Assembly (NCBI GenBank): GCA_018667735.1
Contig: JABIRX010000049.1
Coordinates: 1-56,783 of the forward strand
Direction: 5' to 3'
DNA from: Alphaproteobacteria bacterium
GTDB taxonomy: Bacteria; Pseudomonadota; Alphaproteobacteria; Rickettsiales; JABIRX01
DNA: 56,783 nucleotides
The notes under the pieces are model-generated. The model was not told the origin of the DNA and did not search any database. It was given only the letters and a program-made list of their open reading frames with translations. The position numbers were made by a program, and so were the translations under genes. Shown in pieces: positions 38,071-45,064 of the stretch; within the stretch, counting starts at the first letter, position 1; every line of letters begins with the position of its first letter.

Positions 38071-39315
38071 CTATAGTGACCAGCTTTTTGTTAATTCTGC
38101 AGATCTTTGTGCATCTAGCATTGCTGCACGAGTTTGGCCAGTTTGCACTGTTACCTCATTTTGCTCTACAGGGCCAAATAACCAGCTATCATCAGGTTCT
38201 TCGTTTTGTGCGGTTTGTGCTTTTGCTTCCTGCGCTTTTTCTCGCCCTTTTCTTCCTCTAACTAAGGCTTGAATCTTTGTTGCTGCCGATTGTGCTCTTT
38301 GCTCAGCTAGTCTTGCAACATGAGTGGGATCTTGTTGGCTATCTTCTGCTGCTTGCTCTGCTTCTTGTGCTGCTGCTTGCTGTCCTGCCAATCTAGCTTC
38401 TATTTGACTATTAAGCTCAGTTAACTCACTTTCTGTAAGTTCATGTAATGGTTTTTCAGCCAATTCAGCTGCTCCATTTCCTGCATCATAATGATATGTA
38501 TATGTTCCATCGCCATTTTTAGTTATATTATCAGGTAAGTTTGATTCCAATAAAACATTTAATTTAGTGATTAGTTCTGCTGGATAGTCTGGTTGAAGAT
38601 CTTCTACTGGTAATCTTCTTTCTTGAGTTAAAGCTCTTACTGTATCTCGACCTTGTCTTCCTCTAACTAAAGCTTGAATCTTTATTGCTTTAAAATGCTG
38701 TTTTATTTCATCTGTTAGGTCTATTAAATCTTCTACTCTAAAAGGTTTTCTAGTAATTGGATCAAGCGCCTGTCCTTCTCCTCTTCTAAGCCATTCTTCT
38801 ATTTGAGTTTTTTTGTATAAATGTTGTCCACCTGTAGAATATGCTATTTCACTATCTATTGTTCCATCTTCAGATATAACTTCATTAGATATGCAGCATA
38901 CAGACTCTCGGTTAATTTTAGGTAAGATTTGTTTAGTTATTTGCTTTTTGATTAAATTAGCTACATCGAGATGACCTTGTTGTGCTGCAATAAATAAAGG
39001 CGCTACTCCATTAGTGTTAGCCTGATTTACCACTGCTCCTCTTTCTATTAATAGCTGTGCTACATCGAGTTGACCTGTTTGTGCTGCAATAAATAAAGGC
39101 GTTGCTCCTTTTAAAACCCCACTAGCTGGAGCCAGATTTACCTCTGCTCCGTTATCTAGTAATAGCTGCACTACATCGAGTTGACCATGTCGTGCTGCAA
39201 TAAATAAAGGCGTTGTTCCTCCAAAAGGTTCATTAGCTGGAGGCAGATTTACCTTTACTCTGTTATCTAGTAATAGCTTTACTACATCGAGTTGACCTTG
39301 TCGTGCTGCAATCAT
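38071..39315 (-). CDS. eukaryote-like protein with 4 ankyrin repeats, a U-box-like domain and two IQ (calmodulin-binding) motifs
   Basis: 414 aa. ANK repeats occupy residues 1-122 (TPLFIAA.xGQLDVVqLLLDNGAxVN). A U-box-like segment spans about 135-205 (CCISNEVI...GGQHLYKKTQIEEWL...LDPITRKPFRVEDLIDLTDEIK). IQALVRGRQGRDTV lies at 213-226 and IQALVRGRKGREKA at 348-361. Confidence 0.75.
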   Translation of the reverse strand: MIAARQGQLDVVKLLLDNRVKVNLPPANEPFGGTTPLFIAARHGQLDVVQLLLDNGAEVNLAPASGVLKGATPLFIAAQTGQLDVAQLLIERGAVVNQANTNGVAPLFIAAQQGHLDVANLIKKQITKQILPKINRESVCCISNEVISEDGTIDSEIAYSTGGQHLYKKTQIEEWLRRGEGQALDPITRKPFRVEDLIDLTDEIKQHFKAIKIQALVRGRQGRDTVRALTQERRLPVEDLQPDYPAELITKLNVLLESNLPDNITKNGDGTYTYHYDAGNGAAELAEKPLHELTESELTELNSQIEARLAGQQAAAQEAEQAAEDSQQDPTHVARLAEQRAQSAATKIQALVRGRKGREKAQEAKAQTAQNEEPDDSWLFGPVEQNEVTVQTGQTRAAMLDAQRSAELTKSWSL

Positions 39316-39420
39316 ATAAAGGTGTTACTCCATAAGTGTTAGCCTGATTTACATCAACTCCAAAATTTTCTGCTATGGTTGGAGAACCTTCTTGTGCTAA
39401 AAACTCATTAAGTGTTGTTC
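38950..39420 (-). repeat. tandem ankyrin-repeat-encoding DNA repeats (periods 111, 111, 99 nt) plus a degraded extra copy upstream
   Basis: Recurring near-identical blocks are visible, for example ctacatcgagttgacc...tgtgctgcaataaataaaggcg. A further copy at 39316-39420 is out of frame. Confidence 0.8.
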
Positions 39421-39536
39421 TATTGTCTTATTTAGCTTTATAAGTAAGAAAGCTTGGTTCTTTTATTATATATTAGCCCTTAACCATTTAATTTAGCCAA
39501 TATATTTATTTCCTATTTGTTACAGTTTCATTAATG

Positions 39537-42975: not shown

Positions 42976-42986
42976 AGTGTAACATA
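42976..42986 (-). promoter_or_regulatory. extended -10 promoter (TATGtTACACT)
   Basis: The minus strand reads CTAATTTTTATGTTACACT, ending 23 nt upstream of the ATG at 42952. Confidence 0.4.
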
Positions 42987-43009
42987 AAAATTAGTAGAAT
43001 TAAATATTT

Positions 43010-45064
43010 TTATAATTCTATTGAACGAGTCTTGCTTTTTTGCCTAGCTTGTTCACGCTCCTCAAATGTGACTGGTTTATCCTTTTCATATCTTGTAGCT
43101 TTTCTTATTTGCCTAGAATTAGGTTTTGGCGAATTTTCTTGTGGCTTTTGAATAGGTGTATCTTTCTCTTTTGGCACTTCTGGAACATCTGGCTTTGTTG
43201 TTGTGGGTTCTAGGGTGTTTAAGGCATAATTTTTAGCAATGGTTAAAATTTTTACTTCTTCTGCTAATCCTTGCCGTAAATCTGGATCTGCAGATTTTTC
43301 TACCAGCTGTTCTTTGTTTGCTAATGCAGTTTGCAATTCTTCTGTGATGTTAGCAAGGGTTCTTTTTTGCTCTGCTAATTGTTGTTCTAAAAAATCTAGC
43401 TTTAATGCATAACCTCCACCTGCTACATCTTGCGCTGCATTAACTTGGTCTATTGTTATTAGTTCTGTTTCAATATTTGTTTGCAATATTTGTATTTGTG
43501 CTATCAATTTGTCAATTGCTTTAAGATGATTTTGTGTTTTTTCCTCTAATTTATTACTTAAGGCAGTTTTAATTTTGATTAGAGATGTAAGTTTTAGTTG
43601 ATTAAGATTTGCTTTGGCATTTTCTCTGGTTATATCTCCTGAAACAGGATCAATTAACTTTGCTTTGAAAGGAAAAATAACTTGTTGGTCTCGAATTGTG
43701 TGGCCAGCAATTGAAATTTCGCTACCATCTTCTGGAAGAAGCGCTTTAATAAAATTAACTACATAGTTTTTCTTTGCCGTAAGAGCACTTTTTAGCTGTG
43801 CTTTTATTATTTCTAAATCTACATTAGGTAATTTATACAAATCTTCAGCATGTAATGTTGAATATTTTATATCATATAAGCCAAGACATAGTTTATCTAT
43901 CTCTTTAATTAGTTTTTGCTTGGGAAATTCTGATTTATCGAGTTCTTCACTTGCTGATTTTTCTAAATATTGTGGTTCTTTTCTTCTTGCTTCTATGGTA
44001 GTTATTTTCTTGTTTACAGCATCTAGTAATTGTTGCATCAAGGTTGGATTCTGAAGATCTATTTTAGGTCTGATATTAACTATTGGCTTGTCACCTTCTT
44101 TTAGGTGTGTGATTGAATATCTAGTATTATTTACCATAAGAAATTCAATATCTCGATGCTCGATTAATTTTTTTTTAATTTCTCCTTTAAGGTCAGCTTG
44201 AACGGGGTGATGTGATGGTTGAGTAAGTAAAGCAATTTTACCTTTTGGTGCCAAAGATCTCAAAGAAAAGTCAGATTTTCTTTGATGTTTTCCTTGTGCA
44301 AGTAATTGATCAGCACTAGCTTGTTTGGTTAAACTTTCTGCTTGTACGAATGCTTGTACTGACATCTCTTTTTGTCGATTAAATTCTAATAATTCCGTTT
44401 CTAAAAAAGATATTTCTTCACGAATATTCTCTAGCATTTTAATATGTTTAGCGTTGCTTAGTTCGACCCTTACATTATCTGTAAATTCATGCTTTATTAG
44501 AGAAATTTGTTTAACCAAATCAACTTTTCTATTAAATGTTTCAAGAGCGCTCTGCTGTTTTTTATACGCTCTATCATTTATTTGTTTCAACTTATGATAT
44601 TTCAGATTTATTTGAGTAATCATTTCTTGTCTTTTAGCTAAGTCTTCTTTTTGATTGGAAATTTTTAGCTTGGTTCTTTCTAGTTTGAGCTCTTTCATTT
44701 CTTGCATATATTCTATATTTTGCTCGCTATCTAGAGACAGACTCCCTCTAGAACTACTTGTTTCCTCTTCATATAATTGTTCAGCTAAACTTGTTTCGTT
44801 TATGCTTAATTGTTGTTTTAGCGCTTTTAATTCCTGGCCATGTTCTTCATATTCTTGTGCCACCTCTCTAAATGCTATATTAGCCTGTTGGAATAAAAAC
44901 ATAGAATTGTTTTTTTGCTGTTCTAATGTTATCAAAGGCTTAAGCTCCTTGATTTTATTTTCTAATAATATAGCTTCCGCTTTAGAAAAGCGTGTTGTTT
45001 TTTTTAACTGTAATAAACAATCTGATATTATTTTTAGTATTGGTTTAGGGTAAGATTCATACAT
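43010..45064 (-). CDS. large coiled-coil hypothetical protein, partial paralog of the 529-aa protein
   Basis: 684 aa with long heptad-like E/K/Q/L-rich stretches. It shares a roughly 60-aa module with the 529-aa protein (KKLIEHRDIEFLMVNNTRYSITHLKEGDKPIVNIRPKIDLQNPTLMQQLLDAVNKKI). The C-terminus is Pro/Lys-rich and ends RSIEL. Confidence 0.65.
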   Translation of the reverse strand: MYESYPKPILKIISDCLLQLKKTTRFSKAEAILLENKIKELKPLITLEQQKNNSMFLFQQANIAFREVAQEYEEHGQELKALKQQLSINETSLAEQLYEEETSSSRGSLSLDSEQNIEYMQEMKELKLERTKLKISNQKEDLAKRQEMITQINLKYHKLKQINDRAYKKQQSALETFNRKVDLVKQISLIKHEFTDNVRVELSNAKHIKMLENIREEISFLETELLEFNRQKEMSVQAFVQAESLTKQASADQLLAQGKHQRKSDFSLRSLAPKGKIALLTQPSHHPVQADLKGEIKKKLIEHRDIEFLMVNNTRYSITHLKEGDKPIVNIRPKIDLQNPTLMQQLLDAVNKKITTIEARRKEPQYLEKSASEELDKSEFPKQKLIKEIDKLCLGLYDIKYSTLHAEDLYKLPNVDLEIIKAQLKSALTAKKNYVVNFIKALLPEDGSEISIAGHTIRDQQVIFPFKAKLIDPVSGDITRENAKANLNQLKLTSLIKIKTALSNKLEEKTQNHLKAIDKLIAQIQILQTNIETELITIDQVNAAQDVAGGGYALKLDFLEQQLAEQKRTLANITEELQTALANKEQLVEKSADPDLRQGLAEEVKILTIAKNYALNTLEPTTTKPDVPEVPKEKDTPIQKPQENSPKPNSRQIRKATRYEKDKPVTFEEREQARQKSKTRSIEL

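Follow-up and report, generated by a model that had tools for sequence, protein, structure and literature searches.

Effectors assembled from ankyrin repeats, U-box or F-box domains, CaaX boxes and clan CE deubiquitinase domains are well known in Legionella, the Rickettsiales and the Chlamydiae. The described systems closest to the genes reported here are AnkB of Legionella pneumophila, a host-farnesylated Dot/Icm effector with an F-box, ankyrin repeats and a CaaX box; the Legionella U-box proteins LubX and GobX; and the clan CE enzymes OtDUB of Orientia, RickCE of Rickettsia, XopD of Xanthomonas and ChlaDUB of Chlamydia. Targeting of GobX also relies on host lipidation. We compare with these systems a locus at positions 38071–45064 of a 56,783-nucleotide (nt) stretch, hereafter the window, of contig JABIRX010000049.1 (assembly GCA_018667735.1), a metagenome-assembled genome (MAG) from an uncultured marine alphaproteobacterium. 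An initial annotation had placed five minus-strand open reading frames (ORFs) there, and ORF calling confirmed all five at their coordinates, in the order P5-P4-P3-gdhA-P1. It had further read P1, as a ubiquitin ligase (E3)-like writer, and P4, as a protease and eraser, as a pair within an effector island around gdhA. We find that P4 and P5 are under diversifying selection, that P1 has the marks of a decayed gene, and that the locus is a stable chromosomal neighbourhood; the damage to P1 and the selection on P4 and P5 had both been overlooked.

P5 (43010–45064, minus strand) is an orphan of 684 amino acids (aa), basic (isoelectric point, pI, 8.8) and rich in Glu, Lys, Leu and Gln. P4 (41363–42952, minus strand), an orphan of 529 aa, consists of a helical N-terminal region, a module shared with P5 and a conserved C-terminal block. 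We measured the ratio of nonsynonymous to synonymous substitution rates (dN/dS) at the locus against a sibling strain, L082, which has ~97% nucleotide identity over 21 kb. P4 carries 91 nonsynonymous and 13 synonymous differences, giving a dN/dS of 1.97 that exceeds 1 with a binomial p=0.013, and P5 has a dN/dS of 1.09. Ten flanking genes, at similar dS, range from 0.02 to 0.31, with gdhA at 0.02 under strong purifying selection, and Fisher tests separate both P4 (p=5e-20) and P5 (p=4e-14) from these neighbours. P3 differs from its sibling counterpart by 1 aa. When the observed substitutions were placed at random, the frame stayed open with P=0.031 for P4 and P=0.01 for P5 (91 substitutions). 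The indels of P4 measure 3, 9, 3 and 6 nt and those of P5 are likewise in frame only; all six are multiples of three, an outcome with a chance of ~0.0014. P4 and P5 have been kept as intact proteins while changing at or above the neutral rate.

The changes in P4 are unevenly spread. Two blocks are spared, namely the shared module and residues 395–472, and the changes peak just upstream of the second in a hot-spot (residues 361–400; 41753–41872, minus strand) where 18 of 40 residues differ between the strains, directly N-terminal to the invariant block. Of the population variants P0007 and P0010, one carries extra EEQR-rich sequence inserted after residue ~96 and another begins with ~60 residues of different sequence, so the N-terminal helical region also varies by indels and replacement, beyond point substitutions.

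P1 (38071–39315, minus strand; 414 codons) belongs to a modular, multi-copy family whose members consist of a leader (MRLTE·NRTTLNEFL·QEGF··IAENLGVDVNQ), ankyrin repeats, a variable middle module, one or more IQ motifs and a tail domain (…DGTYTYHYDAGNGAA…LTE·ELTELN·QIEARLA). Of the two tail types, one terminates in a CaaX box (…KSCCTIS or …VCCNVM; CTIS or CNVM). Intact members stand in tandem arrays at L091 1–2640 and L093 1–2679, and a paralog, P0028 (HON42_03330), adjoins secA in the same MAG. Upstream of the intact genes lies a common element that contains a perfect extended -10, TTATGTTATAAT, ~35 nt from the ATG, in the context …GCATAGACCTAAAAATTATGTTATAATAA…TTTTAGGTT-ATGAGA…; it is present in L091 and also in L094 (4388–4718). 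Against this background P1 shows three lesions. The family promoter, ribosome-binding site, ATG and first codons are gone, with a deletion junction at ~39420/39421. About 35 codons belonging to the leader and first repeat persist, but only as an out-of-frame N-terminal family remnant that lacks a start codon (39316–39420, minus strand; …NRTTLNEFLAQEG…GVDVNQANTYGVTPLY; repeat D2), and a 1-nt insertion at ~39313–39316 shifts the frame and makes the present mid-repeat ATG. At the other end, where the 3' ends of the window, L082 and L091 were aligned, a 1-nt deletion (38071–38082, minus strand) converts …KSCCTIS* into …KSWSL*, a frameshift that destroys the CaaX box and leaves P1 without a C-terminal CaaX tetrapeptide. 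Six independent assemblies have the 5' lesions in identical form, so these are not sequencing errors. We also considered a start codon mutated in place; alignment with the intact loci led us to reject it in favour of a ~110-nt deletion of promoter, start and first codons.

The sibling strain shares the CaaX deletion and has gone further: ~770 nt are missing, comprising ankyrin repeats, the U-box-like segment and the first IQ motif, and the remaining 170-aa tail ORF resembles another paralog type. The alignments with intact relatives show P1 to be, as far as its sequence can tell, a decayed relic in this lineage; given its lesions and the large deletion in L082, the putative writer appears to be decaying here.

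The surroundings of these genes do not resemble an island. GC content at third codon positions of P1, P3, P4 and P5 is 0.17–0.23, equal to that of the neighbours, in a window of ~30% GC, and searches of the window found no tRNA, Rfam element, integrase or bordering or flanking repeat at the locus. Comparison of the gdhA neighbourhood with that of the sibling strain, a check on presence or absence of the proposed island, showed P5-P4-P3 and the gene order with its housekeeping flanks fully conserved there, with P1 mostly deleted. The locus is a stable part of the chromosome rather than an island of recent acquisition. Separate promoters had also been proposed. Extended -10-like sites (TGTTAnnnT) do lie on the minus strand upstream of P5 (45110–45118, TGTTACTAT, 45 nt before the start codon), P4 (42976–42984, TGTTACACT, 23 nt) and P3 (41326–41334, TGTTATAGT, 29 nt), but promoter-like sites in total are about as many as chance predicts, with 28 found against 29.5 +/- 5.2 expected. 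No minus-strand terminators were found between the locus genes, and spacers are 57 nt (P5/P4), 54 nt (P4/P3), 74 nt (P3/gdhA) and 221 nt (gdhA to P1).

The invariant block of P4 (residues 395–472, 78 aa; 41537–41770, minus strand) may form the core of a CE-clan-like cysteine isopeptidase. It is 100% identical in the sibling strain, and one of five population variants has Gln396Lys at its edge. It reads …LFIPELTGTSELDS-H412-FVLNIV…ISIKQY-D432-PLHG…PL-Q448-ARGTNVD-C456-GPLICEAA…, and its candidate catalytic residues, His412 (41717–41719), Asp432 (41657–41659), Gln448 (41609–41611) and Cys456 (41585–41587), all on the minus strand, follow the clan CE order His-Asp-Gln-Cys. The stretches S-H412-F-V-L, Y-D432-P-L and Q448-A-R-G-T-N-V-D-C456-G are invariant in every variant. 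The catalytic residues of OtDUB are His76, Asp96 and Cys135 (PMC7214410), and the His-to-Asp spacing of 20 in P4 equals that between His76 and Asp96 (PMC7214410). Phe replaces Trp after the His.

Several comparisons bear on this assignment. A hidden Markov model (HMM) of Ulp1/SENP1, built from sequences verified against PDB, scores 3.7 bits against P4 residues 340–500, a value that 6 of 2000 shuffles also attained (p≈0.003), and its alignment puts Gln448 and Cys456 on the QQxNGxDCG motif. An extended hhalign alignment also superposes WLND-like and FxP…SH-aromatic motifs. These tests were chosen once the motif was known and are not independent of it. The single-sequence AlphaFold2 (AF2) model of P4 has a confidence score (pLDDT) of 45.6 overall and of 80–90 for residues 1–110 only, and its C-terminal domain is unusable; a deeper alignment was impossible because P4 is an orphan. 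In a Foldseek search of PDB with this model, OtDUB ranks 5, 11 and 17 (best E 0.17, probability 0.95, 89 columns) and XopD ranks 26 (E 0.89), at model pLDDT <50 there. The earlier description of P4 as a CE-clan-like protease therefore keeps its residue order and gains weak structural matches, but P4 has no Pfam, NCBIfam or PDB sequence family. Going by the conserved residues, P4 probably has a cysteine-dependent catalytic core, with activity predicted; its placement in clan CE is not demonstrated, and we regard it as evenly poised.

Of the domains of P1, the ankyrin repeats are the clearest (residues 1–124; 38944–39315, minus strand; 111-nt repeat family D1). The present ORF starts in the middle of a repeat. 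They match Pfam Ank_2, Ank and Ank_4 at E ~1e-25 as well as PDB ankyrin and DARPin chains, and AF2 models this part as a repeat fold with pLDDT ~80–93. Residues 142–209 (38689–38892, minus strand) form a U-box-like segment whose loop 1 contains 9 inserted residues; this type of middle module occurs only in P1, P0005, P0023 and P0025. Its best PDB sequence matches are the U-boxes of PRP19 and CHIP, weak at E 0.1–1.7; a profile of the segment run against PDB gave a spurious SUZ12 stretch at the top and CHIP only at E 1.7. With hhalign, a profile of P1 and its two closest U-box-bearing relatives aligned with three canonical U-boxes at a probability of 81% (E 1.2e-5, 46 columns); the targets came from ankyrin/U-box proteins in the match list, two of them annotated PF04564 and the third read by eye. 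The alignment keeps the C-x-I Ile and the DPITRKP Pro, residues that contact the ubiquitin-conjugating enzyme (E2) in known U-boxes. It is quite likely, judging from these alignments, that P1 carries a divergent U-box-like domain, for which ligase activity is predicted only. The dN/dS of the segment between family members is ~1–1.7, intact copies included, and is therefore unusable for or against function.

The pattern IQxxxRGxxxR occurs twice in P1, both copies containing IQALVRGR(Q/K)GR, and marks putative calmodulin-binding sites (PF00612). The first copy (38640–38689, minus strand; IKIQALVRGRQGRD) was read directly; the second (38235–38284, minus strand; TKIQALVRGRKGRE; residues 343–358) scores 20.7 bits with Pfam IQ against a cut-off of 20.3, and the two form direct repeat D4 with 88% nucleotide identity. 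The description of P1 as a U-box E3-like protein with ankyrin and IQ modules thus stands firmly for the ankyrin repeats and by a small excess over the Pfam cut-off for IQ, but the U-box falls short of the Pfam threshold, with hhalign alone recovering it. A 12-nt periodic repeat at 38342–38386 (family D6) encodes a Gln/Ala/Glu-rich linker of the P1 tail, and its length varies among P1 alleles (P0005, L082).

P3, P4 and P5 have no match in Pfam, NCBIfam, PADLOC or PHROG. A phmmer search with P4 of 1.84 billion representatives returned only an 85% ortholog, one fragment, and P5 via the shared module; a metagenome scan added a single 1.5-kb fragment, and tblastn of the C-terminal half against plasmids gave one irrelevant match only. 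For P5, a search of 5.8 billion clusters found only itself and an 89% ortholog. The module common to the two spans 61 aa in P5 (residues 294–354; 44003–44185, minus strand) and in P4 (residues 169–229; 42266–42448, minus strand), where it is nearly invariant between strains. Its two copies are 48% identical by BLASTP (E 8e-15), and hhalign joins the proteins at 97.2% (E 3.4e-11) over these 61 columns only, with no further similarity outside the module. To call P5 a paralog of P4, as had been done, is correct for this module and overstated for the rest. A 33-nt element (…TTCTACTAAyTTTTAT…, repeat family D7), 79% identical between its copies, lies upstream of both P4 (42974–43006) and P5 (45167–45199); it suggests either that an ancestral duplication took in regulatory sequence or that a regulator site is common to the two genes. 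P3 (minus strand) has an ORF spanning 40949–41308, and its real start is probably the ATG at 41296, giving a protein of 115 aa (40949–41296) that is rich in Ser, Glu, Asn and Pro and has no homologues. It had been described as small, acidic and disordered; it is small and acidic (pI 4.73), and its composition looks disordered.

Given these results, we lean towards a reading in which a stable neighbourhood holds, to either side of gdhA, fast-evolving genes of two unrelated kinds, both probably directed at eukaryotes, with P4 a candidate isopeptidase and P1 a relic. P5, P4 and P3 are a lineage-restricted, closely spaced group on one strand. P4 would be a secreted cysteine protease, an effector of the deubiquitinase or ubiquitin-like (Ubl) protease type, whose hot-spot sits roughly where CE enzymes have variable substrate-binding regions and may be a recognition surface in an arms race with the host; P5 would be a related scaffold or targeting protein, and P1 a decayed copy from a multi-copy family of modular effectors. 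Delivery into host cells is proposed from eukaryote-type motifs only. A host-directed role seems most likely because IQ, CaaX and U-box motifs in the P1 family follow a logic found only in eukaryotes. Of the earlier proposal, eukaryote-directed gene content is thereby retained, through the ankyrin, U-box-like, IQ and CaaX elements of the P1 family and the His-Asp-Gln-Cys block of P4 with its weak OtDUB and XopD matches, but the coupled pair is not. We consider doubtful a more far-reaching version, in which P4 represents a new minimal subfamily of CE-like cysteine isopeptidases (~80 conserved residues, a short Asp-Cys spacing, unseen by profiles) with a recognition region in an arms race with the ubiquitin (Ub)/Ubl system of a protist host, and in which the intact relatives of P1 are undescribed bacterial E3 mimics, combining ankyrin repeats, a divergent U-box, IQ motifs and host prenylation, in an uncultured marine alphaproteobacterial lineage.

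A number of observations pull the other way. In P4, Asp and Cys are 24 residues apart, much shorter than the 39 of OtDUB or the 49 of Ulp1; none of the Foldseek matches in PDB is significant (E >= 0.17; none at E 1e-3), from a model with pLDDT <50 in the region, and a Foldseek search of viral structures (BFVD) returned long-helix noise only. The hhalign comparison of P4 with Ulp1/SENP1 has E 0.044 and a calibrated probability of 1.2%, no Pfam or NCBIfam family, CE families (C48, C55, C5, C57 and others) included, matches P4 at E<=1, and phmmer against PDB found no CE chain at E<=10. On the side of P1, Pfam U-box (PF04564) scores 13.4 bits on the whole protein and 16.1 bits (E 0.012) on the isolated segment, short of the gathering cut-off of 21.4, and the AF2 model from the family alignment has a U-box-compatible order of strand-strand-helix-strand-helix but low confidence (pLDDT 50–59 at residues 150–200). 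In six assemblies the 414 codons of the P1 ORF remain free of stops, and read-through from gdhA could lead to its expression, which would speak against its being a relic. No protein-secretion system is encoded in ~75 kb, made up of the window and ~18 kb in flanking contig gene tables, and the organism need not be host-restricted, since a nonribosomal peptide synthetase (NRPS), TonB receptors, MetE and a photolyase are encoded.

The initial proposal, that P1 as a U-box E3 writer and P4 as a clan CE deubiquitinase eraser make up a co-evolved effector/meta-effector island like LubX/SidH, draws on a U-box-like segment and a CE-like motif within 7 kb of one strand and on the extended -10-like motifs upstream of P5, P4 and P3. 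We consider it very unlikely. P1, with promoter, start codon, first codons and CaaX box lost and its frame shifted, is unlikely to act as the partner of P4, and L082 deletes the ankyrin, U-box and first IQ parts of P1 while keeping P5-P4-P3 intact, so the two genes are not co-maintained. Family members with the U-box-like module stand elsewhere without P4 or P5 alongside, and the composition, tRNA and repeat hallmarks of an island are absent. Decay of a different kind, with P4 and P5 as functionless ORFs under relaxed constraint, would suit the dN/dS of ~1 in P5 and the orphan status of both. This we find hardly credible, as only 3% (P4) and 1% (P5) of simulations kept an open frame, six of six indels are in frame, the dN/dS of P4 is above 1 (p=0.013), and fully invariant blocks adjoin the hot-spots.

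Selection of this kind is also typical of interfaces between phages and bacteria, and P4 and P5 might be aimed not at eukaryotes but at phages or predators, as envelope-associated or interaction proteins (for instance in defence or receptor masking) that diversify under phage or grazer pressure. A lipopolysaccharide (LPS)/O-antigen cluster and msbA adjoin their genes, no secretion system is nearby, and the genome looks capable of free living. Yet PADLOC and PHROGs gave nothing for P3, P4 and P5, which leaves readings as a defence system or phage genes without support; neither a signal peptide nor a transmembrane segment was evident on reading P4 and P5 by eye, with no predictor run; the His/Asp/Gln/Cys block of P4 resembles a eukaryote-type isopeptidase; and the same lineage has a family with IQ and CaaX motifs that are sensible only inside eukaryotic cells. 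On balance we hold this explanation unlikely. The succession of a large protein with a putative catalytic C-terminal domain and a small acidic protein could, in turn, point to a polymorphic interbacterial toxin (P4, with a cysteine-protease toxin domain) and its immunity protein (P3). Polymorphic toxins vary in the C-terminal toxin domain, however, and it is the C-terminal block of P4 that is invariant and the N-terminal regions that vary; Pfam finds no PAAR, Rhs, LXG, TPS or other delivery domain in P4, and P3 has a composition that looks disordered, unlike a folded immunity protein. A toxin and immunity pair is accordingly a highly improbable account.

The remaining genes of the window are of other kinds. 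gdhA (39537–40874, minus strand) is a housekeeping gene and, as the initial annotation had it, encodes a bona fide NADP-specific glutamate dehydrogenase (NF006929, 613.8 bits, above the cut-off). Its best match among those listed from GTDB species representatives has 55% identity, and the top matches listed are from Bacteroidota, Planctomycetota and Gammaproteobacteria, not Alphaproteobacteria, spread over many phyla; on these matches, gdhA may be an old horizontal acquisition. A scan of gdhA neighbourhoods in the species-representative genomes found no usable synteny among the matches listed. Housekeeping genes flank the locus, with czcD/fieF, ydjM, dinB, sulP and polA on one side and an MsbA-like ABC exporter, rmlACB, glycosyltransferases and metK on the other; UbiE and UbiB point to a proteobacterium. 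That no secretion apparatus is encoded in the window had been noted before and is borne out, the adjacent ABC protein being MsbA-like. We rejected this protein, beside P5, as a type I exporter, its best match being TIGR02203. In L082 the corresponding gene (5914–7739, equivalent to window 45256–47025) is called as two ORFs of 555 aa and 52 aa, against one 589-aa protein here, possibly through a 5' frameshift or else an assembly error.

Beyond the window, the flanking contig carries an NRPS, a phosphopantetheinyl transferase and dnaX on one side and rhamnan and glycosyltransferase genes on the other. The NRPS, of 2146 aa, lies with the phosphopantetheinyl transferase ~10 kb upstream of the first window position, going by the gene table alone, and its region adjoins a trio of TOL_0244-type TonB receptor, YfiR-like protein and histidine kinase (window 365–4422). 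The whole looks like a siderophore-type locus, which suggests that the organism is not a strictly host-dependent symbiont. Four more ORFs without a Pfam match (227, 210, 249 and 472 aa), at 30086–32927 and 16006–17424, may likewise be specific to the lineage; in the 210-aa ORF, dN/dS against the sibling strain is raised, at 0.54.

Set beside the described systems, the intact relatives of P1 resemble AnkB in joining a domain of the E3-adaptor type to ankyrin repeats and a CaaX box. The likeness extends to loss: a frameshift removed the CaaX box from the AnkB allele of strain Paris (PMC5506055), and P1 in the window has likewise lost its own by frameshift. The P1 family differs from AnkB in having a U-box-like domain and not an F-box, in its additional IQ motifs, in being alphaproteobacterial and in lacking homology outside the ankyrin repeats; its members are putative translocated effectors. 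With LubX and GobX it shares the presence of a eukaryote-type U-box-like domain in a bacterium, but the P1 segment is below the Pfam U-box threshold, has a 9-residue loop insertion and belongs to a relic copy.

P4 shares with OtDUB, RickCE, XopD and ChlaDUB the order His-Asp-(Gln)-Cys and an aromatic residue after the His. It also has, in common with clan CE effectors, an F-x-P…S-H-aromatic-x-L strand, a Q…N-x-D-C-G motif and a variable region beside a constant core, and it comes from an alphaproteobacterial lineage, like Orientia and Rickettsia. In contrast to these enzymes, it has no homology at the HMM level, an Asp-to-Cys distance of 24 against 39–49, Phe for Trp and a very compact C-terminal domain. 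Should P4 prove to be a CE-type enzyme, clan CE would extend to sequences that current profiles miss. The diversifying selection on P4 and P5 is unusually clear, and in P4, where it lies beside an invariant candidate catalytic core, it offers a concrete and inexpensive biochemical target.

The ankyrin families of the Rickettsiales (Orientia, Wolbachia), in which pseudogenes are frequent, are likewise modular, arranged in tandem arrays, rearranged between strains, fast-evolving and accompanied by truncated copies, and the P1 family differs from them in its set of modules (leader, U-box-like or other middle module, IQ, tail domain and CaaX) and in its origin from an uncharacterised marine MAG. 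The locus shows that adjacency of writer-like and eraser-like domains is not the same as a functional pair, one member here being a relic. The kind of system is thus already known; what is new is the undescribed combination of ankyrin repeats, a U-box-like domain, IQ motifs and a CaaX box in an uncultured marine alphaproteobacterium.

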